From a virus (lineage: Duplodnaviria; Heunggongvirae; Uroviricota; Caudoviricetes): a stretch of 15,049 nucleotides of DNA. The notes beneath the pieces are model-generated. The model was not told the origin of the DNA and did no database searches. It saw only the letters and a list, made by a program, of their open reading frames with translations. The stretch lies in the IMG/VR virus record IMGVR_UViG_3300009034_004089. One strand, written 5' to 3'. The position numbers were made by a program, and so were the translations under genes. Position 1 is the first letter of the stretch. The number at the start of each line of letters is the position of its first letter. Shown here piece by piece: positions 1 through 15,049 of this stretch.

Positions 1-1284
1 TTACAGACTTCTGGAAGGTTGCGCAGCTCTTACAACACGCGGTTGATCTTCCGCAGCGTCTTCCAGCGCACTTAAATCACGGTCTTTCACCTCTGGCATT
101 TTCAGCGCAGAGATTAAACCAATCACTGAATATGCCATGATCATAATGGCGATCGGATACCAGGATTCCGTCATGGTGCAGAAAATACCCGCCAGGATAG
201 GACCAAAACCGGAAGCGATAAGACCACCAATTTCTTTAGAAATAGCCATCCGGGTAAAGCGGTTTTTACAGCCGAACATTTCTGCCATGGTAATGTTTTC
301 CAGAGCAAATAATCCCAGCACCGCACAGTTATGAATCACAATCAGTGCAACCATAATGGTGCTCGGGGCATAGCTTTTATCTACAATGATAGAAAGCATT
401 GGCCATGCCAGCACAATCGCGGAGGTATTCATAATAATATACGGGATCCGGCGACCAATTTTATCGGATAACCAACCAAGGAACGGAATGGTCATAAAGC
501 CGAGAATCGAACTAATCATCAATGCATCTGTTGGAATTGCTTTGTTAAACAATAACGTCTGCACTAAATAGCCTGCAAGGAAAGTCTGAATTAACCCGGA
601 GTTACCCGCCTGACCAAAACGCAGCCCTGTTGCCAGCCAGAAGGATTTGCTCTGGAACATGCTACCAGCAGGTGCAGGTTTTGCTGTGGGTTGGTTGCTG
701 TCATTAACCTTCTCAAAGACCGGGCTTTCTTTCAGATTCATACGTAACCAGATAGCAAAGACCATCACGACAACGCTCGCCAGGAACGGTATACGCCATC
801 CCCACGCCAGCAGTTCCTCTTTACTGAGAATGAAGAACATAAAGGCCCAGATTGCCGTTGCGCTCAAGGTTCCGCAGTTAGTTCCCATAGCTACAAATGA
901 GGAGATAATTCCGCGCTTACCTTTTGGTGCATATTCCGCCAGCATCGTACCGGCACCGGAAATTTCCGCACCTGCACCCAACCCCTGAATAATACGCAGC
1001 GTCACCAGCAAGATGGGGGCAAAAACACCAATCTGTGCATAGGTCGGTAACACACCAATTAAGGTGGTACAGATCCCCATCATGGTGATGGTAATAAAGA
1101 GCACTTTTTTACGCCCTATTCTGTCGCCCATTTTGCCGAAAATAAATGCTCCGACAATACGCGCCACATAACCTGCACCGTAGGTTCCCATTGCCAAAAT
1201 TAACGCCATTGCCGTTGATGATTCAGGAAAAAATATTTCATGAAACACTAACGCTGCGCCGAGCGAATATAACTGGAAATCCAT
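1..1284 (-). CDS. ydfJ: MFS transporter, metabolite:H+ symporter family (ShiA-like); the ORF begins abruptly at the prophage junction, consistent with an N-terminally truncated chromosomal gene
   Basis: 427-aa ORF ending at window base 1 (stop included); MFS-type multi-TM composition with GxxxDRxGRK-like motif (GKMGDRIGRKK); N-terminus (MDFQLYSLGAALVFHEIFFP) aligns from memory to an internal position of ShiA-type transporters, i.e. first TM segment missing; matches my recollection of K-12 YdfJ (pseudogene interrupted by Qin). Confidence 0.8.
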   Translation of the reverse strand: MDFQLYSLGAALVFHEIFFPESSTAMALILAMGTYGAGYVARIVGAFIFGKMGDRIGRKKVLFITITMMGICTTLIGVLPTYAQIGVFAPILLVTLRIIQGLGAGAEISGAGTMLAEYAPKGKRGIISSFVAMGTNCGTLSATAIWAFMFFILSKEELLAWGWRIPFLASVVVMVFAIWLRMNLKESPVFEKVNDSNQPTAKPAPAGSMFQSKSFWLATGLRFGQAGNSGLIQTFLAGYLVQTLLFNKAIPTDALMISSILGFMTIPFLGWLSDKIGRRIPYIIMNTSAIVLAWPMLSIIVDKSYAPSTIMVALIVIHNCAVLGLFALENITMAEMFGCKNRFTRMAISKEIGGLIASGFGPILAGIFCTMTESWYPIAIMIMAYSVIGLISALKMPEVKDRDLSALEDAAEDQPRVVRAAQPSRSL

Positions 1285-1887
1285 AATTCACAGGTGTTTT
1301 TTCCCATCCTGTGGTTCCCTTGGCGTTTTCTAGGTTTTTTCAGATAGTTGCATTTTTTAAAAAGCATCCTGAGTTCGATCTCAGTGTCTATCTGGGGCCT
1401 ATTTCTGTCCCATATATGCCCCAAAAAAACTCCCCAACAGATAAGTGGTTTTTTCATGGATTTATGCGTAAAATCAAGAACGGCTGGAAATCATTCAATA
1501 CACACACTATCGAAAAATTTACCAGCCAACCGCAGCACGTTCTTGCATAAGGCGTGTCTGCGGTTTTTCAACTATTCAGATACATCACTCCCATCACATT
1601 CATTCCTCCGCATCAAAGGCATATAGGCTATATCACCTTGATATTTTTCTTCTTCAGATAAAAACTGTTATCTATGTATACTTTTAAACCCAATCCGTGT
1701 AGAGTCTCTGCATAAGATAGTTTGCAGTTGCCGCTTCAGCTTGCGCCATAAACCGCCTGATTTTTGCTGCCACCTGTTAGCATTCCTGTATACCTGAAAC
1801 GACAATGTTTATCTACGAACTTTAAGAACACCCAAGATAAAAATCGTCAACTATATCATATATAACACATTAATAATTCGAGGCTAT

Positions 1888-2001
1888 ATGAACAGCATAC
1901 TGATAATCACTTCTCTCCTTATCATATTCAGCATTTTTAGTCATGCCCTAATAAAATTAGGGATTGGCATATCCAATAACCCAGACAAAACCGATGTATA
2001 A
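1888..2001 (+). CDS. Candidate small hydrophobic protein (37 aa, one predicted TM helix)
   Basis: ATG at 1888 preceded by GAGG at 1880-1883; translation [37 protein letters not shown], stop TAA 1999-2001; below the 60-aa cutoff of the ORF track; AT-rich intergenic context upstream of ynaE/ydfK. Confidence 0.25.
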
Positions 2002-2069
2002 GTCAACATATTCTGAATCAGACATACAATATCGCAATGAAAATCAATAATATTTTAAGGAATATCTTC

Positions 2070-2303
2070 ATGAAATCAAAAGACACCCTAAAGTGGTTCC
2101 CTGCGCAGCTTCCTGAAGTAAGAATTATCCTAGGGGATGCTGTAGTGGAAGTAGCAAAACAGGGAAGACCTATCAATACCAGAACATTGCTTGATTACAT
2201 TGAAGGAAACATAAAGAAAAAATCATGGCTGGATAACAAAGAATTATTACAAACAGCGATATCAGTTCTTAAAGACAACCAAAATTTAAATGGTAAAATG
2301 TAA
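2070..2303 (+). CDS. ydfK: YnaE/YdfK-family prophage protein (cold-shock-induced in K-12), 77 aa
   Basis: ORF 2037-2303; the MKSKDTLKWFPAQLPEV... portion from the ATG at 2070 matches remembered K-12 YnaE/YdfK over the full length; AAGGA upstream; ynaE (Rac) and ydfK (Qin) paralogues cannot be told apart by eye, ydfK chosen because of the ydfJ neighbour. Confidence 0.8.
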   Translation: MKSKDTLKWFPAQLPEVRIILGDAVVEVAKQGRPINTRTLLDYIEGNIKKKSWLDNKELLQTAISVLKDNQNLNGKM

Positions 2304-2465
2304 TATAATTAACTTACTTTTTTATCATTTTCCACTTTAACAACATTTTGCTCCACTTTTCCACGACCAAACAACTTGAAATCTGGTTAAAATAACACGC
2401 AACACTATTCTTCTTCCTTGAGTCCGCCCGGAACTCGAAAAACAAACCGAGTTAAAGCCATTTTT

Positions 2466-2483
2466 CACAAAATCGATTTTGGG
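2466..2483. promoter_or_regulatory. Near-perfect palindrome CACAAAATCGATTTTGGG (perfect 14-bp core CAAAATCGATTTTG) about 135 bp upstream of pin; candidate recombinase or regulator binding site
   Basis: Seen directly in sequence; AAAA-N4-TTTT architecture loosely resembles hix/gix-type crossover sites of serine invertases, but the match is weak and no partner site was found. Confidence 0.25.
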
Positions 2484-2618
2484 TCTCACCAAAATTACGG
2501 GGTTGCATACGCATTCGTTTATTTTCGAACGTGTACATACAAATATGCACAAAAATAATCAAAATTATTTTCTGAGATGCATTATGATATGAACACCAAT
2601 TTCGTATAGAGTCTCACT

Positions 2619-3209
2619 ATGTCTCGAATTTTTGCTTACTGTCGGATATCAACGCTGGATCAGACCACCGAAAATCAACGCCGGGAAATCGAAAGTGCAG
2701 GTTTTAAAATCAAACCTCAGCAAATAATCGAAGAACACATTAGCGGCTCAGCAGCAACCAGTGAGCGTCCTGGTTTTAACCGGTTGCTTGCTCGCCTGAA
2801 ATGTGGTGATCAATTGATTGTGACAAAATTGGATCGCCTTGGTTGTAATGCAATGGATATCAGGAAAACAGTGGAACAACTGACCGAAACAGGTATCAGA
2901 GTGCATTGCTTAGCATTGGGGGGCATTGACCTGACCAGTCCAACAGGAAAAATGATGATGCAAGTAATTTCAGCAGTCGCTGAATTTGAACGAGACCTTT
3001 TACTTGAACGCACTCATTCCGGGATAGTAAGAGCCCGCGGCGCAGGGAAACGTTTTGGTCGACCACCTGTGTTAAATGAAGAACAGAAACAGGTGGTATT
3101 CGAACGAATTAAGTCAGGTGTAAGTATAAGTGCCATTGCCCGGGAATTCAAAACCTCGCGGCAAACCATTTTAAGAGCCAAAGCAAAACTTCAGACACCT
3201 GACATATAA
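2619..3209 (+). CDS. pin: Serine recombinase / DNA invertase of the PinR/PinQ family, 196 aa
   Basis: Full-length ORF; N-terminal catalytic motif YCRISTLDQ with the nucleophilic serine; C-terminal HTH region; matches remembered K-12 PinR/PinQ (the paralogues are near-identical, so which one is not resolvable by eye). Confidence 0.9.
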
Positions 3210-3306
3210 AAAATAATCTCGGTGTGAGATGCTTTACGTCTTCCAAGCCCCCTTCCTTGCCGTAAATGGAAAGATACATCTAATTATAGAATTTATATGT
3301 TTTACC

Positions 3307-3417
3307 CTACGGCAGTGCTGGCCATTCAATATCCTGTGCAGTTGACGTATCAACACGGTTCAGCAATACCCGATACTTTTTCCATGCTTCCAGCAACGAG
3401 GTTTCTTCCTCCGTTGC
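3307..3417 (-). pseudogene. tfa: Tail fibre assembly protein (Tfa) C-terminal remnant, about 36 codons
   Basis: Minus-strand frame reads ...[36 protein letters not shown], matching the C-terminus of K-12 TfaR/TfaQ; upstream in-frame sequence ([17 protein letters not shown]) is unrelated and overlaps the 97-aa gene in another frame, so only the 3' end of tfa survives. Confidence 0.7.
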
Positions 3418-3436
3418 ATATACAGCCCACCTTTTT

Positions 3437-3730
3437 TCACCCACGATTAACCAACAGCCAGACCAGCAGACACGCCACCACCGGCACAGCAAAATCCATC
3501 AGGCTTGCCACATCCCACGCGCGCGGATCAAAACCGCCCCACCACGGCATATTCATTCGCTTGCCATGCCCGAACATTTCAATCCAGCGATATTCTGCCT
3601 GGGTATGTTCACGCGCAATGAAGAACGTACAACCGGCTATCGCTCCGTAAGCCCAGTTTCCGGTAAAAAGACCAACCAGTATCTGCGCAGCCACAGCACA
3701 AAGTGCATGAAGTAAGGGGCTTATATCCAT
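3437..3730 (-). CDS. Hypothetical small integral membrane protein (97 aa, about 3 predicted TM helices)
   Basis: ATG at 3730 preceded by GGAGG with a 5-nt spacer; 12-nt gap to the upstream 92-aa gene; hydrophobic stretches [51 protein letters not shown]; not recognised. Confidence 0.6.
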
Positions 3731-3742
3731 TATTTCCTCCTT

Positions 3743-4021
3743 TCAGCTCCATTCCCGAAGCGGTGTTTCCAGCTCCACGACATAATCAGAGAATACAGAA
3801 ACATCAAACAAGTCATCAAGAATGCGAATGTTGACAAAATAACCGTTATTCCGGATACAGACAGGTTCTCCCTCTTCAGTTACCCCTGTTTCTGTGTAGG
3901 TGAAACCAATTTCATCGACTAACAGTTTATTCTGGAGGTCTTCATCTTCCTCCCAGTCAAGAGATGACAGGAAGGATTTAAACTCTCTGTTACCAGGAAA
4001 TTTCAAAGTTAAATCTTTCAT
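3743..4021 (-). CDS. Hypothetical acidic soluble protein (92 aa)
   Basis: ATG at 4021 overlaps the TGA of the upstream 251-aa ORF (ATGA coupling); AGGAGG directly upstream; acidic composition (DWEEDEDLQ, EEGEP); not recognised. Confidence 0.6.
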   Translation of the reverse strand: MKDLTLKFPGNREFKSFLSSLDWEEDEDLQNKLLVDEIGFTYTETGVTEEGEPVCIRNNGYFVNIRILDDLFDVSVFSDYVVELETPLREWS

Positions 4022-4773
4022 ACTGCCTCCTTGATTTGCCTGTCATTTAATTCTTTAAACCAGACTCTGAAATTTCTGATGTGTCCAAACAAATGACGCG
4101 TTCCTGCTGCGGTCTGCCCACCAAACCGGTACGATGTTGCTGTAACTCCAAATATTTTACCATTAAGGTTTGTTGTATAATTACCATTGCATATTGCATT
4201 TACTGATAAATCAGATTTAGCTCTCACACCCACAATGAACCTTTCTCCATCTGAGGAAATTTGTGGCTGAACCATTCCTACGTTGGCGCTTATCTTTCCT
4301 GTTGAAACAAACCCCAGCGATAAATAATTATCATCAATACTGTGCCCTCCAACATCAAATATCCTTGGCGCAACATTGGGCGGTGTACTCCAGTTCCTCC
4401 TTACTTCGCACAATACTGTAAAAGGCCGTGTTGACAGGTTATTCGCCGAGGGGATAGTAACCACATCACTTGCGCGTGTTGTTGGCATTGTAGTTACAAT
4501 AAATGACGATGCCGTATTGCCCAGTTCAATTTGCGGCGTCGTCATGGTTAATGTTGAGTCATCATAGAATGGCTCATTACTTATTTTATTTGTCATATAA
4601 AAAGCACAGTTAACGGTATCAATGTCCGTATTAGCTGTATAAGTGGCCTCATAGTAGGTCCACTCGCCCTGTTGTTCAGCTTTGGCTGTTATAAGGGATG
4701 TATTACCGCTTACTGTTGCGATCCGGGTATTCGCCTTTATCGGTGTAAAATTCATCTGGCGACATACCGCCAT
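4018..4773 (-). CDS. Hypothetical beta-rich protein (251 aa) with a C-terminal region resembling a LamG/concanavalin-A-like jelly-roll lectin domain; possibly a receptor-binding or adhesin-type module
   Basis: T/N/S/G-rich composition typical of beta-sandwich fibre or lectin domains; C-terminal FGGQTAAGTRHLFGHIRNFRVWFKELNDRQIKEAV resembles the last strands of Laminin_G_3-type domains (pattern recognition only); in-frame stop 3 codons upstream of the ATG; no clear SD; first of three coupled genes. Confidence 0.55.
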   Translation of the reverse strand: MAVCRQMNFTPIKANTRIATVSGNTSLITAKAEQQGEWTYYEATYTANTDIDTVNCAFYMTNKISNEPFYDDSTLTMTTPQIELGNTASSFIVTTMPTTRASDVVTIPSANNLSTRPFTVLCEVRRNWSTPPNVAPRIFDVGGHSIDDNYLSLGFVSTGKISANVGMVQPQISSDGERFIVGVRAKSDLSVNAICNGNYTTNLNGKIFGVTATSYRFGGQTAAGTRHLFGHIRNFRVWFKELNDRQIKEAV

Positions 4774-5098
4774 CCCGAATCAGCTTTGCCCGGGTTTCCC
4801 CCACAATCTGTTTTTGTCTGGTGTAAGGCTGACGCAAAAACCATTCCCTGTAGGTTGTATCTCCGGCCAGAACAATGACCGGAACAGAATCCATTTTGAG
4901 CATTTCAGCCGCCATAACACGACCGTGACCCGCAATAATTTCGCCCTTTTCGTCAATCAGCACCGGATTAGTCCAGCCGAATTGCTTAATACTTTCTACC
5001 AGTTGTGCCACCTGCTCAGTACTGTGCGTCCTGGCGTTGTGCGCATACGGTGACAATTCTTGTAATGGGCGATAGACTATCTTTAATTTCTCGCTCAT
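4703..5098 (-). pseudogene. ynaK: ParB-like nuclease domain protein (YnaK-like), N-terminal ~79 aa conserved then out-of-family tail; truncated at a recombination junction near 4860
   Basis: ORF starts MSEKLKIVYRPLQELSPYAHNARTHSTEQVAQLVESIKQFGWTNPVLIDEKGEIIAGHGRVMAAEMLKMDSVPVIVLAG (ParB N-terminal fold with GHGR motif, as I recall K-12 YnaK); the remaining ~50 codons overlap the 251-aa gene in another frame and look non-native. Confidence 0.65.
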
Positions 5099-5117
5099 AC
5101 AGCCTTGCTTTATGAAT

Positions 5118-5150
5118 AAAACGCACCCCAGCAGCCAGTGCTACTGGGGG
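5118..5150 (-). terminator. Candidate intrinsic terminator downstream of trkG
   Basis: Inverted repeat CCCCAG...CTGGGG (5126-5131 / 5145-5150) followed on the minus strand by a T-rich tract (plus-strand AAAA at 5118-5121). Confidence 0.35.
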
Positions 5151-5235
5151 CGGAGGTGTTGCTGGTAAAGTTAGGTATTGGATCAATGAGTGAGTCAATA
5201 TAATATTAAACTCACAATTATAAATCAGCCATATA

Positions 5236-6693
5236 TTAGGAGCGCCAAAAAAAACCTGAAAACAATATAATAACAGGATAAATTTCAAGGCGACCAAGAA
5301 TCATAGCTATGCACATTAAATATTTTGCAATGTCATTAAGCACTCCGAATGACGATGCAGTAGCCCCAAAACCTAATCCCATATTATTAATACATGCAGC
5401 CACTGTTGCAAATGATGTAAGAAAATCATATCCCATACCATTTAACACCAGTATAAAAAACACCGTGAAGAGAGTATAAAGAAAAAAGAAACTCCATACA
5501 GACCTCATTACACGATCTGTAACTATCTTCCCTCCTACATTTACACTCAACAACGCTCTGGGATGAGAAAGCTGATTTATCTCGTGTTTGCTTTGTTTGA
5601 AAAGTATAAGAAATCGAAGTGACTTAATTCCACCACAAGTTGAACCTATACATCCCCCAAAGAAACTTGACGACAGCAAAAACACTATCGTGTGCGTGGG
5701 CCAGCTTGCATAATCCTGCGTAGCTAAACCATTATCAGTGAGCATGGAGCTGGCAAGAAAAAACGAATGAATAAAACTTCCATGCAAGTCATACATACCT
5801 ATATGCCAGACCTGGAAAGAGGTAACAATGATCACCCCTAAGGCTATTAACAGAAAGAAACGAAGTTCAATATCTCTGATTAAAGGTTTTATCGTTTTCC
5901 TGCTAATAACAATATACCAAAGAGTGAAGTTGAAAGCCGATAGCAGGGAAAAAGAACCAGCCACCAGCTCAACCAAATAGTTATTAAAATATCCGATACT
6001 CTCGCTATGAGTTGAGAAACCACCAAGCGAAACTGTGGAAATCCCGTGACAAATAGCATCAAACAAAGGCATTCCTGCAAGTCTATAACAGACAATACAA
6101 GCAATACCTAATAAAGAATAAGTTATCCACAGTGTCCGTGACGTATCGGCCAGGCGGGGAGTGAGTTTGTCATCCTTAAATGGCCCCGGCATTTCTGACT
6201 GATAAAGCTTTGCACCACCAATACCCAATAATGGCAATACAGCAACCGCCAGAACAATAACTCCTAAACCACCTATAAAATTTAACTGTGACCGATAGTA
6301 CAAATATGCCCGAGGTAATGAACTAACATCATCAATTACAGTTGCTCCTGTTGTTGTTATTCCAGAAACCCCTTCAAACAGAGCATCAATGAACGTTAAA
6401 TTAAGTTCTGAGTCAATCCATAAAGGGAATGCACTAATAACAGAAAACAAAATCCAAAACATTACAATTATAATAAACCCATCACGGGTACGTAATTGAA
6501 TGCCAGATTTCTTAGTTGTATACCACGCTCCGCCACCAATGCAAAAAAATATAACGAAAGTTATAAAGAAAACGAATAGGCTTTTTTCTTTATAAAACAA
6601 TGCTACAACCATTGGTGGCAACATTGAAAGACTATAGAGCCAAACCAGGAACCCACACATATGAGTAACAACTCTTACATGAGATGTATTCAT
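5236..6693 (-). CDS. trkG: Trk-system potassium uptake protein TrkG (485 aa)
   Basis: Translation from the ATG at 6693 (MNTSHVRVVTHMCGFLVWLYSL...) matches remembered K-12 TrkG end to end; multi-TM TrkH/TrkG family; conspicuously AT-rich; the track ORF begins 6 codons earlier at a TTG. Confidence 0.9.
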   Translation of the reverse strand: MNTSHVRVVTHMCGFLVWLYSLSMLPPMVVALFYKEKSLFVFFITFVIFFCIGGGAWYTTKKSGIQLRTRDGFIIIVMFWILFSVISAFPLWIDSELNLTFIDALFEGVSGITTTGATVIDDVSSLPRAYLYYRSQLNFIGGLGVIVLAVAVLPLLGIGGAKLYQSEMPGPFKDDKLTPRLADTSRTLWITYSLLGIACIVCYRLAGMPLFDAICHGISTVSLGGFSTHSESIGYFNNYLVELVAGSFSLLSAFNFTLWYIVISRKTIKPLIRDIELRFFLLIALGVIIVTSFQVWHIGMYDLHGSFIHSFFLASSMLTDNGLATQDYASWPTHTIVFLLSSSFFGGCIGSTCGGIKSLRFLILFKQSKHEINQLSHPRALLSVNVGGKIVTDRVMRSVWSFFFLYTLFTVFFILVLNGMGYDFLTSFATVAACINNMGLGFGATASSFGVLNDIAKYLMCIAMILGRLEIYPVIILFSGFFWRS

Positions 6694-6830
6694 ATCTAAA
6701 TATTCTTTCAATTATAACCACCTTGCTGCAATATTATGATTATACTGTATAAAATTTAACTCCTCTTAGATCTTACTTCACTGTTCCTTATGAAACAATC
6801 ATCAAAATGAATCATATTGTAGTTAAGATT

Positions 6831-7660
6831 TTACTTTAAACACTGTTCGGTTATGTATTGCTGAGCACCTTCAAGTTGGGCCTGCATCATTACCAGTCGT
6901 TCCCGGAGGGTGAAATAATCCCGTTCAGCGGTGTCTGCCAGTCGGGGGGAGGCTGCATTATCCACGCCGGAGGCGGTGGTGGCTTCACGCACTGACTGAC
7001 AGACTGCTTTGATGTGCAACCGACGACGACCAGCGGCAACATCATCACGCAGAGCATCATTTTCAGCTTTAGCATCAGCTAACTCCTTCGTGTATTTTGC
7101 ATCGAGCGCAGCAACATCACGCTGACGCATCTGCATGTCAGTAATTGCCGCGTTCGCCAGCTTCAGTTCTCTGGCATTTTTGTCGCGCTGGGCTTTGTAG
7201 GTAATGGCGTTATCACGGTAATGATTAACAGCCCATGACAGGCAGACGATGATGCAGATAACCAGAGCNNNNNNNNNNNNNNNNNNNNNNNNNNNNNNNN
7301 NNNNNNNNNNNNNNNNNNNNNNNNNNNNNNNNNNNNNNNNNNNNNNNNNNNNNNNNNNNNNNNNNNNNNNNNNNNNNNNNNNNNNNNNNNNNNNNNNNNN
7401 NNNNNNNNNNNNNNNNNNNNNNNNNNNNNNNNNNNNGCATCAGCTAACTCCTTCGTGTATTTTGCATCGAGCGCAGCAACATCACGCTGACGCATCTGCA
7501 TGTCAGTAATTGCCGCGTTCGCCAGCTTCAGTTCTCTGGCATTTTTGTCGCGCTGCTCTTTGTAGGCGGTGGCGTTATCACGGTAATGATTAACAGCCCA
7601 TGACAGGCAGACGATGATGCAGATAACCAGAGCATAAATAATCGCGGCGACTCTGCTCAC
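6831..7660 (-). CDS. Rz (i-spanin, inner-membrane spanin subunit); annotated span is inflated by a 168-N gap plus a 197-bp duplicated overlap; the true gene is about 465 nt
   Basis: N-terminal part (7660 down to 7437, probable GTG start overlapping the endolysin stop) reads [74 protein letters not shown]; C-terminal part (7136 down to 6831) reads [48 protein letters not shown]...EQCLK; resembles K-12 RzpD/RzpR. Confidence 0.75.
6890..7075 (-). CDS. Rz1 (o-spanin, outer-membrane lipoprotein spanin subunit), 61 aa, embedded in the +1 frame of Rz
   Basis: [26 protein letters not shown]... with lipobox LVVVGC and proline-rich tract [15 protein letters not shown]; classic embedded Rz1 architecture. 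Confidence 0.8.
7072..7268. repeat. Copy A of a 197-bp duplicated Rz segment abutting the N-gap (5 mismatches versus copy B)
   Basis: 7072-7268 aligns base for base with 7437-7633 except GGctttgtaggTAA versus CTctttgtaggCGG; ends exactly at the first N. Confidence 0.9.
7269..7436. other. Run of 168 N (scaffold gap)
   Basis: Literal N characters in the sequence; flanked on both sides by overlapping near-identical sequence, the signature of un-merged contig ends. Confidence 0.95.
7437..7633. repeat. Copy B of the 197-bp duplicated Rz segment, starting immediately after the N-gap
   Basis: See copy A; begins exactly at the first base after the N-run. Confidence 0.9.
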
Positions 7661-8190
7661 TGATCTATCCCCCAACAGGCTAATGCGCTTTCCTGGTCAC
7701 GACGAATAACCTGTCCATAGCAGTTATTTGAACGTATGCGGCAATCGCGCCCACCATCTTTTATCCACCAGCGAATCGCCTCGCATGCACCCTTACGATC
7801 ACCGGCATTCAGCCGCTTATAAAACGTCGACGGGAAACACTTACCGGGGCCAATGTTATAGGGACAAAATGACGCTATACCCGCTTTCTGTGGTTCGGTC
7901 AGTGGTACTTTAATATTGCGCTCCACCCATGCCAGCGCCTTATCACGTTCAATAGCGTTAACCTGGTCGCATTTTTCCTTCGACAGCCTCATTCCCGGTA
8001 TGACGGGCTTACCATCCACCATTGTGGCACCACGACAGATGGTCCATATACCGGAACCATCGCGGTATGCCGTTGTGTGGTTACCTTCTTTTTCATCCAG
8101 AAACTGGTCGAGAATATCAGGCGCAGGCGCACCGACGGCAATCAGTGCCAGAACGGCAGCCGACAGGCCGTATCTGATTTTTGCGTTCAT
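7657..8190 (-). CDS. Phage endolysin, T4-lysozyme-like (GH24), with a hydrophobic N-terminal segment suggesting a signal-anchor-release (SAR) type
   Basis: 177-aa ORF; E-x8-D-x5-T catalytic triad context ([19 protein letters not shown]); N-terminal [15 protein letters not shown] hydrophobic stretch; resembles remembered K-12 RrrD/RrrQ; stop overlaps the probable Rz start (GTGA). Confidence 0.85.
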
Positions 8191-8295
8191 GGATATTTAT
8201 CAGGATTTATCGGTTTCTGAACCCTGGATATGTTTATCTGTCCCGGCCTGTTGAATCAGGCAAGGAATAGTTAAATACAATAGAGAGGATTGTTT

Positions 8296-8568
8296 ATGGA
8301 CAATAGCACCATTTCTCTACAGGAGTTGCTCGACTGCATTTCCAAGCTTCGGGATGATGTAAATGCCCTTACTGTCGCATTTTCATATCTGGCATTCTCA
8401 ATTCCCAAGGAACAAATGCAACCAACACTGGCATCGCTCCAGCTTGAATCACTCAACCCCAAATGGTCCCAGCAACAACAAAATTCTTTCAAGTGGCTGG
8501 CGGTATTACTGGAAGAAAAATATGCTGGTGAAATTACCATTTCGGCGGAGTCTTCAGTGAACCAGTAA
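8296..8568 (+). CDS. Hypothetical protein (90 aa), predicted helical, not recognised
   Basis: ATG at 8296 with AGAGAGGA 6 nt upstream; protein-like composition (MDNSTISLQELLDCISKLRDDVNALTVAFSYLAFSIPKEQ...); the overlapping minus-strand frame 8271-8603 translates to low-complexity C/S-rich sequence and is less plausible. Confidence 0.5.
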   Translation: MDNSTISLQELLDCISKLRDDVNALTVAFSYLAFSIPKEQMQPTLASLQLESLNPKWSQQQQNSFKWLAVLLEEKYAGEITISAESSVNQ

Positions 8569-8878
8569 TTCTTCCCGGCAGTTTTCCTTTGTAGGTTATC
8601 CACACACCCTGCGCCTCTAAAATTATGGGGCGCTTTTCCGGTGACTGCTCATCCCCTTCACATAACCCTGCAGCAACATCCAGGAAGACCTGTCTGATGC
8701 TCCTTCTGGCTGCTGCCTCATAAAACTCCAGCGCGGCACCTTCAACACGGTCCAGCGAGATGTCCAGGTCTAAAATTTCACCGTCAAAGCGTTTTTTGTC
8801 CCGTAACGCTAAAGTTACCGTAACTTTATTCTCAAAATTGCGGATCCCTTTCACAATCAGTTCATAGTTTTGAGTCAT
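8534..8878 (-). CDS. Hypothetical protein (114 aa), not recognised; divergent from ydaG, convergent with and overlapping the 90-aa gene by 35 bp
   Basis: ATG at 8878 with GGGGAGAG 7 nt upstream; balanced composition (MTQNYELIVKGIRNFENKVTVTLALRDKKRFDGEILDLDISLDRVEGAALEFYEAAARRSIRQ...); no obvious HTH or Zn-finger motif by eye. Confidence 0.55.
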   Translation of the reverse strand: MTQNYELIVKGIRNFENKVTVTLALRDKKRFDGEILDLDISLDRVEGAALEFYEAAARRSIRQVFLDVAAGLCEGDEQSPEKRPIILEAQGVWITYKGKLPGRITGSLKTPPKW

Positions 8879-9093
8879 TGAATTACTCTCCCCGTGCAGC
8901 CTTACGCTTATCTTCTTTAATCTTGAAATAAAGATTTGTCAGATACGTCAACAGGCCAAACACCAGACTACCCAGCACACCTATTGCTGCCCACTGTGAG
9001 GGCGTGACTCTATCGAGCAACTGTAAAAACCAGTAGCCAGCACTGCCTGCGGAGGTGCCATAGGCGACACCCGGCGTTAAGGGGAGAGATAAG
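8879..9093. promoter_or_regulatory. Divergent intergenic region expected to carry the leftward-early (pL-like) promoter for ydaG-ydaF and the promoter of the 114-aa gene; contains the inverted repeat AATCTT-N6-AAGATT at 8919-8936
   Basis: 215 bp without a plausible ORF between two divergent genes that both carry GGGGAGAG-type SDs; the inverted repeat was seen directly; no confident -35/-10 call. Confidence 0.3.
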
Positions 9094-9228
9094 ATGGTGC
9101 ATTACGAAGTAGTTCAGTATTTGATGGATTGTTGCGGTATCACTTACAGCCCGGCTGTGCAGGCTTTACGTAGCAACGACTGGGATCTCTGGCAAGCAGA
9201 AGCCTCTATCCGCAACAACAAGATGTGA
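9094..9228 (+). CDS. ydaG: Rac prophage small protein YdaG (44 aa)
   Basis: ATG at 9094 preceded by AAGGGGAGAG; translation [44 protein letters not shown]; size and position (upstream of ydaF, flanking sieB) match K-12 Rac; below the ORF-track cutoff. Confidence 0.6.
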
Positions 9229-9238
9229 GGTGCGAAAA

Positions 9239-9394
9239 ATGCAAAAAATCGACCTCGGCAACAACGAATCCCTGGTGTGCGGCGTGTTCCCCAACCAGGA
9301 TGGAACGTTCACTGCCATGACGTATACCAAAAGCAAAACATTTAAAACCGAAACTGGTGCGCGCCGATGGTTGGAGAAGCACACAGTAAGCTAA
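9239..9394 (+). CDS. ydaF: Rac prophage small protein YdaF (51 aa)
   Basis: ATG at 9239; translation MQKIDLGNNESLVCGVFPNQDGTFTAMTYTKSKTFKTETGARRWLEKHTVS; 3' end overlaps the convergent sieB stop by 4 nt; size and order match K-12 Rac. Confidence 0.6.
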   Translation: MQKIDLGNNESLVCGVFPNQDGTFTAMTYTKSKTFKTETGARRWLEKHTVS

Positions 9395-9879
9395 CGATTA
9401 AAACGTCTACTCCTGCTGTTCCAGAATAACTTCATAAAATGGGAGTATTTTTCGGTGACGAGATAATAAGAACAGTTTGCGCTATCACTCTGATGTTGAA
9501 TGATGCCCTTCCGTTCTAATTTTTTCATAACCGGGTTACGGCAAGGAGAAGTGATAATAAGATTTCCTGTTTTAAGGAAATCTTTAAATACAGCGATTTC
9601 TTTCTCAGATAAACGAAGCAATACTCGTTGCTCTGGTAGTAATGAATAATGCTTTTGAATATGCGCTCGCAATCTTGAGAAGGAAATGGCGACCACGAAA
9701 GAAAAGGCAAAAACGATAATCTGAAAGAGCCAAGGTATTTCAGTATAAGCATTGAATGCGACAGTAAACTCTTTCGGTATCAGCCAGAGAGTGAGACCAA
9801 AAATGATAATCGTATACATAAGTCTTTCGAGTGGCTCGTTAGCAAAAAGTTTCAACAATGGAGTAAATACATCCAACAT
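9391..9879 (-). CDS. sieB: Superinfection exclusion protein B (SieB), 162 aa
   Basis: From the internal ATG at 9879 the translation MLDVFTPLLKLFANEPLERLMYTIIIFGLTLWLIPKEF... matches remembered K-12 SieB over the full length; the track ORF extends 41 codons further upstream (to 10002), which I treat as non-coding read-through. Confidence 0.85.
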   Translation of the reverse strand: MLDVFTPLLKLFANEPLERLMYTIIIFGLTLWLIPKEFTVAFNAYTEIPWLFQIIVFAFSFVVAISFSRLRAHIQKHYSLLPEQRVLLRLSEKEIAVFKDFLKTGNLIITSPCRNPVMKKLERKGIIQHQSDSANCSYYLVTEKYSHFMKLFWNSRSRRFNR

Positions 9880-10096
9880 ATCAATAACTCTCAACTGTAA
9901 GGGTATTGAAATGTTAACACAAGCTCTCGCTGTAGGGGTATAGCCGAGACCACCGAAGCCCGGAGGTGGTGAAATAAAACCGGGCACAACACGAAGGCGC
10001 ATTTCCGATATCCATAAAGAGTCGGTCTTGTCTGTTAAATTTAAATGGTGGGAGTGCGCCTCCGGTTGTAAATAACGACATTGCTGTGTGTAGTCC

Positions 10097-10145
10097 TGGC
10101 GGCATCAGTTTTTTTCTTGAAGTTCGGCTGATGTCCGCCCTTTTT
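10097..10145 (+). terminator. Candidate rho-independent terminator (plus strand) between sieB and kilR
   Basis: Inverted repeat TGGCGGCATCAG (10097-10108) / CTGATGTCCGCC (10128-10139) with a 19-nt loop, followed by CTTTTT (10140-10145). Confidence 0.45.
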
Positions 10146-10320
10146 AAAGTGAATTTTGTGATGCGGTGAATGCGGCTAAGCGCACGTGGCACAGTTAAAA
10201 GTCATGTTAGTCCTTATTGGTTTGGGTGGGAAAGCCGACTGTAATTGTTAACTGGTTGCAGTCACCTGGAGGCACCAGGCACCGCATCAACAAAGTTCAT
10301 TTGTAAAAATGGAGATAATT

Positions 10321-10542
10321 ATGATTGCACATCACTTCGGAACTGATGAAATACCACGTCAGTGTGTGACTCCTGGCGATTATGTTCTTCATGAAGGCCG
10401 GACATATATTGCCTCGGCAAACAATATTAAAAAGCGAAAACTATATATTCGTAACCTGACCACAAAAACATGCATTACTGACCGCATGATTAAAGTCTTC
10501 CTCGGTCGTGATGGTTTACCTGTAAAGGCGGAGTCATGGTGA
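10321..10542 (+). CDS. kilR: KilR, Rac prophage killing protein (FtsZ-directed division inhibitor in K-12), 73 aa
   Basis: [73 protein letters not shown] matches remembered K-12 KilR; GGAGA SD 5 nt upstream of the ATG at 10321 (the track ORF starts 4 codons earlier at 10309). Confidence 0.85.
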
Positions 10543-10712
10543 TGACTAAGAAAATAAAATGTGCTTACCACCTTTGCAAAAAAGACGTTGAAGAAAGCAA
10601 AGCTATTGAAAGAATGCTTCACTTCATGCACGGGATTTTATCAAAAGACGAACCGAGAAAATATTGCAGTGAAGCTTGTGCCGAAAAAGACCAGATGGCA
10701 CATGAACTTTAA
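10542..10712 (+). CDS. ydaE: YdaE, small 4-Cys zinc-ribbon-like protein (56 aa)
   Basis: ATG at 10542 overlaps the kilR stop (TGATG); translation [56 protein letters not shown] with C7, C12, C42, C46; matches size and position of K-12 YdaE; below the ORF-track cutoff. Confidence 0.7.
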   Translation: MTKKIKCAYHLCKKDVEESKAIERMLHFMHGILSKDEPRKYCSEACAEKDQMAHEL

Positions 10713-10786
10713 TTAATTGACTATTCGAAACTGAATTTATGCCAGAAATGGCAGGTATTCGCTCAACCTTAATTAAGGAGAAAAAC

Positions 10787-11062
10787 ATGATTACCAATTA
10801 TGAAGCCACTGTTGTAACTACCGATGACATTGTTCACGAGGTGAATCTGGAAGGAAAGCGCATTGGCTACGTAATTAAAACAGAAAATAAAGAAACCCCA
10901 TTCACTGTGGTTGATATCGATGGTCCATCAGGCAACGTAAAAACACTTGATGAAGGTGTCAAAAAAATGTGCCTGGTGCATATCGGAAAGAATCTGCCCG
11001 CAGAAAAAAAAGCCGAATTTCTGGCAACTCTAATTGCAATGAAATTAAAAGGTGAAATCTGA
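10787..11062 (+). CDS. racC: RacC (Rac prophage protein), 91 aa
   Basis: MITNYEATVVTTDDIVHEVNLEGKRIGYVIKTENKETPFTVVDIDGPSGNVKTLDEGVKKMCLVHIGKNLPAEKKAEFLATLIAMKLKGEI from the ATG at 10787, with AAGGAG 6 nt upstream; matches remembered K-12 RacC. Confidence 0.85.
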   Translation: MITNYEATVVTTDDIVHEVNLEGKRIGYVIKTENKETPFTVVDIDGPSGNVKTLDEGVKKMCLVHIGKNLPAEKKAEFLATLIAMKLKGEI

Positions 11063-11069
11063 AAGAAAT

Positions 11070-11090
11070 AGCCTGCGTATGGCGCAGGCT
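11070..11090 (+). promoter_or_regulatory. Short hairpin (8-bp stem AGCCTGCG / CGCAGGCT, 5-nt loop) between racC and recE; possible attenuator or processing site, not followed by a T-run
   Basis: Seen directly; lies in the racC-recE spacer, the region where K-12 sbcA-type activation of recE is known to map (established knowledge, not verified here). Confidence 0.25.
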
Positions 11091-11163
11091 ATGAACAGTG
11101 TGTATCCGGCAAGATCATTCACTGAACAAAACGAATTTTAATCTGAGTTGAGGTTAAAAAACA

Positions 11164-11439
11164 ATGAGCACAAAACCACTCTTCCTGTTACGGAAAGCGA
11201 AAAAATCATCCGGTGAACCTGACGTCGTCCTGTGGGCAAGCAACGATTTTGAATCGACCTGTGCCACTCTGGACTACCTGATCGTTAAGTCAGGTAAAAA
11301 ACTGAGCAGCTATTTTAAAGCTGTTGCCACGAATTTTCCTGTCGTTAATGACCTGCCCGCTGAAGGTGAGATCGATTTTACCTGGAGTGAACGCTATCAA
11401 CTCAGCAAAGACTCCATGACATGGGAACTAAAATCGTAG
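11164..11439 (+). pseudogene. recE: recE 5' fragment (first about 90 codons of exonuclease VIII) terminated after an internal out-of-frame deletion
   Basis: [90 protein letters not shown] matches the RecE N-terminus; reading frame ends at TAG 11437-11439 right after the deletion junction. Confidence 0.8.
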
Positions 11440-12263
11440 AAGACATAGAGCCAGGTATTTATTACGGAATTTCGAATGAGAATTACCACGCGGGTCCCGG
11501 TATCAGTAAGTCTCAGCTCGATGACATTGCTGATACTCCGGCACTATATTTGTGGCGTAAAAATGCCCCCGTGGACACCACAAAGACAAAAACGCTCGAT
11601 TTAGGAACTGCTTTCCACTGCCGGGTACTTGAACCGGAAGAATTCAGTAACCGCTTTATCGTAGCACCTGAATTTAACCGCCGTACAAACGCCGGAAAAG
11701 AAGAAGAGAAAGCGTTTCTGATGGAATGCGCAAGCACAGGAAAAACGGTTATCACTGCGGAAGAAGGCCGGAAAATTGAACTCATGTATCAAAGCGTTAT
11801 GGCTTTGCCGCTGGGGCAATGGCTTGTTGAAAGCGCCGGACACGCTGAATCATCAATTTACTGGGAAGATCCTGAAACAGGAATTTTGTGTCGGTGCCGT
11901 CCGGACAAAATTATCCCTGAATTTCACTGGATCATGGACGTGAAAACTACGGCGGATATTCAACGATTCAAAACCGCTTATTACGACTACCGCTATCACG
12001 TTCAGGATGCATTCTACAGTGACGGTTATGAAGCACAGTTTGGAGTGCAGCCAACTTTCGTTTTTCTGGTTGCCAGCACAACTATTGAATGCGGACGTTA
12101 TCCGGTTGAAATTTTCATGATGGGCGAAGAAGCAAAACTGGCAGGTCAACAGGAATATCACCGCAATCTGCGAACCCTGTCTGACTGCCTGAATACCGAT
12201 GAATGGCCAGCTATTAAGACATTATCACTACCCCGCTGGGCTAAGGAATATGCAAATGACTAA
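11421..12263 (+). CDS. recE: RecE C-terminal nuclease domain (280-aa ORF; 5'-3' dsDNA exonuclease core of exonuclease VIII)
   Basis: From [31 protein letters not shown]... to ...[11 protein letters not shown] the translation matches the C-terminal about 276 aa of K-12 RecE; the ATG at 11421 is created at the junction in a frame shifted relative to the N-terminal stub; no SD by eye; 3' end overlaps the recT start as in K-12. Confidence 0.8.
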
Positions 12264-13065
12264 GCAACCACCAATCGCAAAAGCCGATCTGCAAAAAACT
12301 CAGGGAAACCGTGCACCAGCAGCAGTTAAAAATAGCGACGTGATTAGTTTTATTAACCAGCCATCAATGAAAGAGCAACTGGCAGCAGCTCTTCCACGCC
12401 ATATGACGGCTGAACGTATGATCCGTATCGCCACCACAGAAATTCGTAAAGTTCCGGCGTTAGGAAACTGTGACACTATGAGTTTTGTCAGTGCGATCGT
12501 ACAGTGTTCACAGCTCGGACTTGAGCCAGGTAGCGCCCTCGGTCATGCATATTTACTGCCTTTTGGTAATAAAAACGAAAAGAGCGGTAAAAAGAACGTT
12601 CAGCTAATCATTGGCTATCGCGGCATGATTGATCTGGCTCGCCGTTCTGGTCAAATCGCCAGCCTGTCAGCCCGTGTTGTCCGTGAAGGTGACGAGTTTA
12701 GCTTCGAATTTGGCCTTGATGAAAAGTTAATACACCGCCCGGGAGAAAACGAAGATGCCCCGGTTACCCACGTCTATGCTGTCGCAAGACTGAAAGACGG
12801 AGGTACTCAGTTTGAAGTTATGACGCGCAAACAGATTGAGCTGGTGCGCAGCCTGAGTAAAGCTGGTAATAACGGGCCGTGGGTAACTCACTGGGAAGAA
12901 ATGGCAAAGAAAACGGCTATTCGTCGCCTGTTCAAATATCTGCCCGTATCAATTGAGATCCAGCGTGCAGTATCAATGGATGAAAAGGAACCACTGACAA
13001 TCGATCCTGCAGATTCCTCTGTATTAACCGGGGAATACAGTGTAATCGATAATTCAGAGGAATAA
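12256..13065 (+). CDS. recT: RecT single-strand annealing recombinase (269 aa)
   Basis: [65 protein letters not shown]... full-length match to remembered K-12 RecT; AAGGA SD; start overlaps the recE stop. Confidence 0.92.
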
Positions 13066-13121
13066 TTCAGCCTGGCGGTGTAATGCACCGCCAACTTGAA
13101 ATATTTTTTATGAGAAAAATT

Positions 13122-13316
13122 ATGAGATATGACAATGTTAAACCATGTCCATTTTGTGGTTGTCCATCAGTAACGGTGAAAGCCATTTCAGGATATTACC
13201 GAGCGAAGTGTAACGGATGCGAATCCCGAACCGGTTATGGTGGAAGTGAAAAAGAAGCACTCGAAAGATGGAATAAACGAACCACTGGAAATAATAATGG
13301 AGGTGTTCATGTATAA
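13122..13316 (+). CDS. ralR: RalR (Lar) restriction alleviation protein, 64 aa
   Basis: MRYDNVKPCPFCGCPSVTVKAISGYYRAKCNGCESRTGYGGSEKEALERWNKRTTGNNNGGVHV; CxxC...CxxC zinc-ribbon; matches remembered K-12 RalR; an alternative ATG lies 4 codons upstream at 13110. Confidence 0.85.
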   Translation: MRYDNVKPCPFCGCPSVTVKAISGYYRAKCNGCESRTGYGGSEKEALERWNKRTTGNNNGGVHV

Positions 13317-13518
13317 AATTACCGCCACTATTGAAAAGGAAGGTGGCACTCCTACTAACTGGACAAGATATTCAAAATCTAAACTAACGAAATCAGAATG
13401 CGAAAAAATGCTCTCAGGTAAAAAAGAAGCAGGCGTTTCCAGAGAGCAGAAAGTAAAACTGATAAATTTTAATTGCGAGAAACTTCAGTCCTCGAGAATT
13501 GCATTGTATTCAAATTAA
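13309..13518 (+). CDS. ydaC: YdaC (Rac prophage protein), 69 aa
   Basis: MYKITATIEKEGGTPTNWTRYSKSKLTKSECEKMLSGKKEAGVSREQKVKLINFNCEKLQSSRIALYSN from the ATG at 13309, with GGAGG upstream; overlaps the ralR 3' end by 8 nt. Confidence 0.8.
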   Translation: MYKITATIEKEGGTPTNWTRYSKSKLTKSECEKMLSGKKEAGVSREQKVKLINFNCEKLQSSRIALYSN

Positions 13519-13596
13519 AACTTCATAGCTGATTATTAATAATCAACATCGGGCGTCAATTTCAGTCTAACATTGGCGCCTGCCAGAGGTGATGCG

Positions 13597-13812
13597 ATGG
13601 CACAAGTAATCTTTAATGAAGAGTGGATGGTTGAATACGGCCTGATGCTTCGCACTGGTCTGGGGGCCAGACAAATTGAAGCATACCGCCAGAACTGTTG
13701 GGTGGAGGGCTTCCACTTCAAACGAGTATCTCCTTTAGGTAAGCCAGACAGCAAACGAGGGATTATCTGGTACAACTATCCAAAGATAAATCAGTTTATC
13801 AAAGACTCATGA
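13597..13812 (+). CDS. xisR: Excisionase (XisR / YdaQ), 71 aa
   Basis: [71 protein letters not shown]; GAGGTGA SD; stop abuts the int ATG (TGATATG); the track ORF begins 8 codons upstream at a TTG. Confidence 0.8.
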
Positions 13813-13813
13813 T

Positions 13814-15049
13814 ATGTCTAAATTACCAACAGGTGTCGAGATTAGAGGTAGATACATTCGCATCTGGTTCATGTTTCGAGGAAAACGATGTCGGGAAACA
13901 TTAAAAGGCTGGGAGATTACAAACAGTAATATTAAAAAGGCCGGAAATTTAAGATCGCTGATAGTTCATGAAATAAACTCCGGTGAATTTGAGTATTTAA
14001 GACGTTTTCCCCAGTCCAGCACTGGGGCAAAAATGGTGACAACGAGAGTCATAAAAACGTTCGGAGAGCTTTGTGATATCTGGACAAAAATTAAAGAGAC
14101 AGAGTTAACAACAAACACAATGAAGAAAACGAAATCACAATTAAAAACACTCAGAATAATAATTTGTGAAAGTACCCCGATATCACATATTCGTTATAGC
14201 GATATCTTAAACTACCGGAATGAACTGCTGCATGGAGAAACGCTTTACCTGGATAATCCAAGATCCAACAAAAAAGGAAGAACCGTGCGCACAGTTGATA
14301 ACTATATCGCCCTGCTCTGTTCGCTGTTGCGTTTTGCGTATCAGTCGGGATTTATATCAACTAAACCATTTGAAGGAGTAAAAAAATTACAGCGAAACAG
14401 AATAAAGCCTGATCCGTTATCTAAAACAGAATTCAATGCATTAATGGAAAGTGAAAAAGGACAGAGCCAGAACTTGTGGAAATTTGCCGTTTACTCAGGA
14501 CTTCGTCACGGGGAACTGGCAGCTCTGGCGTGGGAGGATGTGGATCTCGAAAAGGGAATAGTGAATGTCAGAAGAAACCTGACGATACTTGATATGTTCG
14601 GTCCCCCAAAAACAAATGCCGGGATCCGAACAGTAACACTACTGCAGCCTGCTCTTGAAGCACTGAAGGAGCAATACAAACTGACCGGGCATCATCGCAA
14701 AAGCGAAATCACCTTTTATCATCGGGAGTACGGCAGAACCGAAAAGCAAAAACTGCATTTTGTTTTCATGCCCAGGGTGTGTAACGGAAAACAAAAACCT
14801 TATTACTCGGTAAGCAGTTTGGGGGCAAGGTGGAATGCAGCAGTAAAACGTGCTGGTATTCGCCGCCGTAATCCGTACCATACGCGGCATACTTTTGCCT
14901 GCTGGCTGTTGACGGCAGGAGCGAACCCGGCATTTATAGCCAGCCAAATGGGGCATGAAACTGCGCAGATGGTGTATGAAATTTACGGTATGTGGATTGA
15001 TGACATGAACGACGAACAGATAGCCATGTTGAATGCGCGGTTATCGTAG
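13814..15049 (+). CDS. intR: Tyrosine site-specific integrase, Rac IntR type (411 aa, complete; stop is the last codon of the window)
   Basis: Full-length ORF with the C-terminal catalytic region of tyrosine recombinases (…RNPYHTRHTFACWLLTAGANPAFIASQMGHETAQMVYEIYGMW…); matches remembered K-12 IntR; xis-int arrangement. Confidence 0.9.
   Translation: MSKLPTGVEIRGRYIRIWFMFRGKRCRETLKGWEITNSNIKKAGNLRSLIVHEINSGEFEYLRRFPQSSTGAKMVTTRVIKTFGELCDIWTKIKETELTTNTMKKTKSQLKTLRIIICESTPISHIRYSDILNYRNELLHGETLYLDNPRSNKKGRTVRTVDNYIALLCSLLRFAYQSGFISTKPFEGVKKLQRNRIKPDPLSKTEFNALMESEKGQSQNLWKFAVYSGLRHGELAALAWEDVDLEKGIVNVRRNLTILDMFGPPKTNAGIRTVTLLQPALEALKEQYKLTGHHRKSEITFYHREYGRTEKQKLHFVFMPRVCNGKQKPYYSVSSLGARWNAAVKRAGIRRRNPYHTRHTFACWLLTAGANPAFIASQMGHETAQMVYEIYGMWIDDMNDEQIAMLNARLS

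Follow-up and report, generated by a model that had tools for sequence, protein, structure and literature searches.

Organization of the Lysis Locus

The window, which denotes here the whole 15,049-nt stretch of viral DNA (IMG/VR record IMGVR_UViG_3300009034_004089), contains a Rac-type lysis region in which Rz, with Rz1 embedded in it, lies between trkG and the endolysin gene. The gene labels that the initial annotation had assigned from the letters alone (ydfJ, trkG, Rz, endolysin and int) all hold, as is apparent from the domain content and the counterparts in Escherichia coli BL21(DE3) collected in Table 1.

Table 1. Genes, repeat blocks and contig ends in the window, ordered by position.
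Feature	Position	Strand	Remarks
ydfJ	1–1284	-	
Qin/Rac common repeat (ynfT/ynaM, ydfK, pin)	1526–3743	.	2.2 kb, 99.3%; second junction
trkG, Rac-borne potassium transporter	5236–6693	-	Downstream of Rz; PF02386 (E=2e-143); trkG in BL21(DE3)
Rz (i-spanin), Rac prophage	6831–7660	-	830 nt as scaffolded, split by the gap; PF03245
Rz1 (o-spanin lipoprotein)	6890–7075	-	+1 frame, wholly within Rz; PF06085 (E=2e-19); in the ORF list
Block identical in all three Rz paralogues	6906–7070	-	165 nt; no variable column among Rac, lambda-DE3 and DLP12 in the column-by-column table
Discriminating base	7071		C in Rac and DLP12; A only in lambda-DE3, among the three paralogues
Left contig end, lambda-DE3-type Rz segment	7071–7268	-	Allele A; judged foreign/chimeric, to discard
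Block shared by Rac and lambda-DE3	7072–7190		119 nt; DLP12 differs at five sites
Five-base patch	7191–7204		Rac differs from lambda-DE3 and DLP12
Block identical in all three Rz paralogues	7205–7268		64 nt
Scaffold gap	7269–7436	.	168 N, read as standing for nothing; contig ends read as truly overlapping by 197 nt
Right contig start, native Rac Rz segment	7437–7633	-	Allele B; judged native, to keep
Next base after the 64-nt block	7634		Rac and the lambda-type copies differ again
Endolysin, rrrQ-type lysozyme	7657–8190	-	Directly upstream of Rz; PF00959 (E=1.3e-24); rrrQ in BL21(DE3)
intR	13814–15049	+	

The only N-run of the window falls inside Rz and is bracketed by the two copies of a 197-nt direct repeat with a period of 365. 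Copy A (7072–7268) ends directly before the first N at 7269, and copy B (7437–7633) begins directly after the last one at 7436. The copies are 97.5% identical, with five clustered mismatches (copy A/copy B: 7191/7556 G/C; 7192/7557 G/T; 7202/7567 T/C; 7203/7568 A/G; 7204/7569 A/G), and their minus-strand translation yields two different ten-residue peptides, one for each copy. These are the same two alleles, with the same coordinates and mismatch sites, as those in the initial annotation. A repeat of this length and identity is far beyond chance; the only other one found between 6500 and 8300 is a 19-nt match of 79% identity, which is chance-like. The scaffold carries 562 bases (7072–7633) in place of 197.

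Collapsing the two copies and the Ns into one restores a single intact Rz reading frame of 465 nt and 154 codons, with a GTG start at 7660 and a stop at 6831–6833. The encoded protein matches the Phage_lysis family (PF03245) over residues 29–152 with E=8.5e-53, and a hydrophobic stretch of 19 residues is visible at its N-terminus, as befits an N-terminal membrane anchor. It corresponds to the "lysis protein" WP_000091919.1, annotated at 1404557–1405021 of NC_012971.2, and this exact canonical protein is found on at least 1000 contigs. The ORF that reads through the Ns is absent from the records in an exact-sequence look-up, and a scan of genome contigs for the exact pattern across the gap gave no match.

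Rz1 possesses the lipobox cysteine (...LVVVGC...), and the start of Rz is overlapped by the endolysin gene by 4 nt. The A at position 7071 is silent in Rz and makes codon 2 of Rz1 a leucine, as in lambda, where the native Rac gene has an arginine; the hybrid Rz1 that an annotator would call from the scaffold is probably absent from the strain. Judged by gene layout and domains, Rz and Rz1 are here assigned as a lambda-type embedded spanin pair, with disruption of the outer membrane as the predicted function.

In many other E. coli genomes, those with K-12-type Rac, trkG is adjoined by a 101-aa C-terminal remnant of Rz and the endolysin is missing upstream, whereas B-type Rac retains the whole holin-endolysin-spanin cassette. 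The 101-aa ORF of the Rz C-terminus was considered as a product specific to the window and rejected, being the natural remnant of K-12-type Rac loci.

Comparison of the Collapsed Locus with Closed Genomes

After deletion of 7072–7436, with copy B kept, the part of the window from 2745 to 15049 (11,940 nt) was compared base by base with the Rac prophage of BL21(DE3). The two are identical at 11,939 of the 11,940 positions, and the sole mismatch is located at 7071, where the window has A and the reference C. The right contig alone (7437–15049) exhibits 100% identity to the same prophage over 7,613 nt. Many closed E. coli B/BL21 genomes contain the full length of a collapsed query of 3001 nt with 1 mismatch, and in 146 complete genomes 80% or more of this 3-kb trkG-Rz-endolysin query lies in one place. 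No duplication within Rz was found among the roughly 146–148 complete genomes that hold the locus, and the trkG-Rz-endolysin adjacency is present in every B-lineage closed genome among the matches listed. The gene order of Rac in BL21(DE3) (NC_012971.2) is trkG, "lysis protein", rrrQ, a ydfR-family gene, essD, sieB, kilR, recT, xisR and intR; the window is near-identical to and collinear with the B/BL21 prophage over a span that begins with the tail-fibre remnants, takes in trkG, the lysis genes, sieB, kilR, recT and xisR, and ends with intR.

Collectively, these comparisons indicate that the trkG-Rz-endolysin join across the gap is correct. The initial annotation had regarded the join as unverified and the break as probably repeat-induced; the second part stands, and the first does not, given that the locus is contiguous in about 146 complete genomes. 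Its further statements, that the contig ends overlap without having been merged and that the apparent duplication should not be read as biology, agree with the restored 154-codon frame, with the collinearity described above and with the lack of any such duplication in those genomes.

In BL21-lineage genomes the matches to the window come as single pieces, which implies that the window has the BL21-type deletions in Rac. Genomes of the E. coli B/REL606 type match it in two pieces: relative to 3300–5200 of the window they contain about 2.5 kb of extra sequence with tail-fibre N-terminal and DUF6651 genes, and relative to 11400–12300 about 1.5 kb of extra sequence with a full-length recE.

Three Rz Paralogues and the Origin of the Two Alleles

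Rz occurs in a median of three places per E. coli genome, and BL21(DE3) contains three paralogues, in Rac (1404557–1405021), in lambda-DE3 (765939–766400) and, as rzpD, in DLP12 (546281–546742). Their alignment divides the locus into the blocks listed in Table 1. Over 363 nt (6906–7268) the window is 100% identical to the Rz gene of phage lambda and to the lambda-DE3 Rz of BL21(DE3). The left contig carries Rac-specific bases at 6891–6905 and thereafter the lambda-DE3 base at 7071 and the lambda-DE3 form of the patch; its end differs from Rac at six positions (7071, 7191, 7192 and 7202–7204), all occupied by lambda-DE3 bases, and agrees with lambda-DE3 at 11 of the 11 sites that discriminate in the three-paralogue table. 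It stops at 7268, one base short of the next difference between Rac and lambda. The right contig starts one base past the difference at 7071, contains the Rac form of the patch and continues into Rac-specific sequence from 7634. Both contig ends are therefore placed exactly at Rac/lambda divergence points.

On these comparisons, copy B can be assigned to the native Rac allele, and copy A together with base 7071 to the lambda-DE3 type. The DLP12 gene rzpD was weighed as a source of allele A and dismissed, its base at 7071 being C and further differences lying at 7076, 7099, 7104, 7107 and 7125. The proposal that the alleles stem from at least two paralogous Rz copies is borne out by the three present in BL21(DE3), with lambda-DE3 as the donor of allele A, and the accompanying suspicion that reads of different prophages had been stitched together finds its counterpart in the lambda-DE3-type 198 nt with which the left contig ends (7071–7268). 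The Rac patch is tied to the Rac right flank across no more than 64 identical bases, which makes this link likely to be trustworthy; between the Rac left flank and the lambda bases lie 165 identical ones, which makes the connection there likely to be untrustworthy.

Lambda-Type Patch in Other Rac-Type Rz Genes

The lambda-type five-base patch is also found in Rac-type Rz genes with C at 7071 in five RefSeq genomes labelled "complete", namely CP081489 (BL21(DE3)), CP083273 (BL21-RIPL), CP083274 (Rosetta2-DE3), CP084683 (BL21(RP)) and CP027430 (AS19-RrmA-). The corresponding protein, WP_404864641.1, occurs on 88 contigs, compared with at least 1000 for the canonical one. Patched Rac Rz genes appear in several strain backgrounds, metagenome scaffolds included, and A at 7071 is present in none of the patched Rac loci examined.

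In these other assemblies the patch could reflect either genuine gene conversion or recurrent cross-talk between Rz paralogues during consensus building or polishing. That four BL21 derivatives with near-consecutive accessions are patched and many other BL21 assemblies are not is more suggestive of a pipeline effect than of inheritance. Given the patched Rac genes elsewhere, allele A in a Rac context is conceivable in itself; however, their existence does not rescue allele A of the window, because its base at 7071 is found only in lambda and its contig ends at the point where lambda and Rac diverge.

Qin/Rac Hybrid in the Left Contig

The left contig shows a second mixture at its other end. 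Positions 1–3743 of the window align to the Qin end of BL21(DE3) (ydfJ, ynfT, ydfK, pinQ) and positions 1526–7268 to Rac, with the common repeat of Table 1 as the overlap. Up to 2744, 12 of the 13 diagnostic sites are Qin-type and one, 2429, is Rac-type; from 3038 onward every diagnostic site is Rac-type, which places the switch from Qin to Rac at 2745–3037. The left boundary of Rac next to uspF/ompN, that is, its ynaM-ydfK-pinR end, is not present; positions 1–2744 are the Qin end instead. In BL21(DE3) the two copies of the repeat are inverted and lie about 171.5 kb apart.

None of the 5,426 complete genomes holds positions 1–7268 of the window in one place, and a sample of 10 ydfJ contexts from other collections includes none with trkG close by. 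The 427-aa YdfJ fragment is ubiquitous in an exact-sequence look-up. The Pin protein of the window equals PinQ exactly and is one residue off PinR, for which reason no protein is diagnostic of the Qin/Rac hybrid. No Rac-Qin inversion in BL21 was found in the literature; the only relevant report concerns gene conversion, documented between Qin and Rac in K-12 ER2796 (PMC4444293).

The hybrid would represent either a real inversion junction or a chimeric contig. The chimera appears much more likely in view of the demonstrable chimerism at the opposite end of this contig. The initial annotation had considered everything to the left and to the right of the gap to be only scaffold-linked; this is true of the present record, but the doubtful linkage is that within the ydfK-pin repeat (2745–3037), not that across the gap.

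Proposed Origin of the Apparent Duplication

The reading that we favor, with a probability of about 0.93, is that the Rz duplication is an artefact of assembly and scaffolding, and that at the true locus one intact Rz/Rz1 pair would lie between the endolysin gene and trkG. The strain sequenced was presumably a BL21 lambda(DE3)-type lysogen, because a lambda-type Rz with A at 7071 is required and BL21-lineage genomes match in single pieces. Such a genome, of BL21-lineage E. coli B with lambda-DE3, would present the assembler with three Rz/Rz1 loci sharing exact blocks of 165, 119 and 64 nt. The left contig would enter from trkG, switch from Rac to lambda-DE3 within the 165-nt block (6906–7070), follow the lambda-DE3 branch through the A at 7071 and the five bases at 7191–7204, and halt at the branch point at 7268. 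The right contig would enter from the endolysin gene, stay on the Rac branch and halt at the branch point beside 7071. Because the foreign lambda-DE3 bases make the 197-nt overlap differ at five sites, the two ends would have been left unmerged, and the scaffolder, with order and orientation right, would have inserted an estimated gap of 168 N. The choice of branch in a repeat graph and the sizing of the gap from read pairs are what we infer of the assembler's behaviour. The corrected sequence would consist of window positions 1–7070, a C, and positions 7437–15049, which makes the scaffold, on this sequence-based reconstruction, 365 nt too long.

A genuine tandem duplication of about 365 nt within Rz, its middle unsequenced or masked by N, would also produce two 197-nt copies at a period of 365, and some stretches in sequence collections are indeed masked as N. 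We consider its probability close to negligible: both copies end exactly at the N-run, their boundaries coincide with the points of Rac/lambda divergence, and a local duplication of Rac would not yield the lambda-DE3-specific bases of the left copy. Moreover, the duplication is absent from the approximately 146 complete genomes with the locus, and it would shift the frame and destroy Rz. On the same evidence, the idea that the N-run masks real sequence was rejected. Highly improbable, too, is a misjoined scaffold, in which contigs from different prophages or different places of the chromosome were connected since both end in Rz. The multi-copy nature of Rz, with three loci in BL21(DE3) and the same median per genome, invites such an error, and the left contig, demonstrably foreign at its end and hybrid further left as well, is in keeping with it. 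However, the flanks of the common block are Rac-specific on both sides (6891–6905 on the left, 7634 onward on the right), together they reproduce the Rac prophage of BL21(DE3) over 11.9 kb, and every B-lineage closed genome listed has trkG, Rz and endolysin adjacent.

It is likewise very unlikely that both alleles are real, that is, that a lambda-type Rz had acted as gene-conversion donor to Rac Rz, either in the isolate or in part of the culture, and that the assembler broke at the polymorphic bubble. Rac Rz genes with the exact five-base patch do exist in the five "complete" genomes, on the 88 contigs and in several strain backgrounds, and the K-12 ER2796 case (PMC4444293) is a real one between Qin and Rac. 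Nevertheless, the lambda-DE3-specific A of the left contig at 7071 is missing from all hybrid loci examined, and the point at which this contig stops is precisely that of renewed divergence between lambda and Rac. Of the five complete genomes, moreover, four come from different commercial derivatives of BL21 whose accession numbers nearly follow one another, and allele B is carried by many other BL21 assemblies, including BL21-Gold(DE3). A reading in which the mixed alleles represent real prophage recombination, combining conversion of Rac Rz by the lambda-DE3 or DLP12 Rz with an inversion that spans about 171 kb and has the inverted ydfK-pin repeats of Rac and Qin as its endpoints, so that the window would be a true inversion junction, is regarded as unlikely.

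Implications and Comparison with Known Systems

With a false duplication as the preferred explanation, what the locus displays is an ordinary assembly artefact in the familiar Rz/Rz1 pair that the Rac prophage of E. coli B carries, and no new biology. At face value, Rz in the scaffold is broken or duplicated with a false frameshift, codon 2 of Rz1 is wrong, and 365 bases are spurious; the record can be repaired by deleting 7072–7436 and setting 7071 to C. The value of the result is one of curation, comprising this correction and the flagging of two chimeric stretches in the left contig. The prophage paralogues of BL21(DE3), namely the three Rz genes and the ydfK-pin repeat of Qin and Rac, are places of allele exchange in short-read assemblies, and small "variants" at these sites should not be taken for mutations unless uniquely anchored reads support them.

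The artefact has a known parallel in work by Rhie et al. (2021, PMC8081667), where sequences that overlap at contig boundaries become tandem false duplications through scaffolding. As in the false "homotype" duplications of that study, the locus appears twice, once per contig end, with a scaffold gap between; the copies are of read scale, and the duplication vanishes after collapse against an independent assembly. Unlike in that case, the two copies here are non-identical and one end is contaminated by the lambda-DE3 Rz paralogue, which points to a repeat-induced failure to merge rather than to sequencing error.

In comparison with the Rac lysis cassette of E. coli B/BL21(DE3) (essD - ydfR - rrrQ - Rz/Rz1 - trkG, NC_012971.2, 1403–1406 kb), gene order and annotation are the same, and the cassette of the window stands apart only through 365 additional, artefactual bases and its A at 7071. 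In contrast, the ydfJ-ydfK-pinQ segment with which the window begins belongs to Qin in BL21(DE3) and not to Rac. The resemblance to the Rz/Rz1 spanin of phage lambda comprises the PF03245 protein, the lipoprotein (PF06085) embedded in the +1 frame and the position right after the endolysin gene. The native Rac gene departs from lambda Rz in the five-base patch and at both its 5' and its 3' end, and its spanin activity is predicted.
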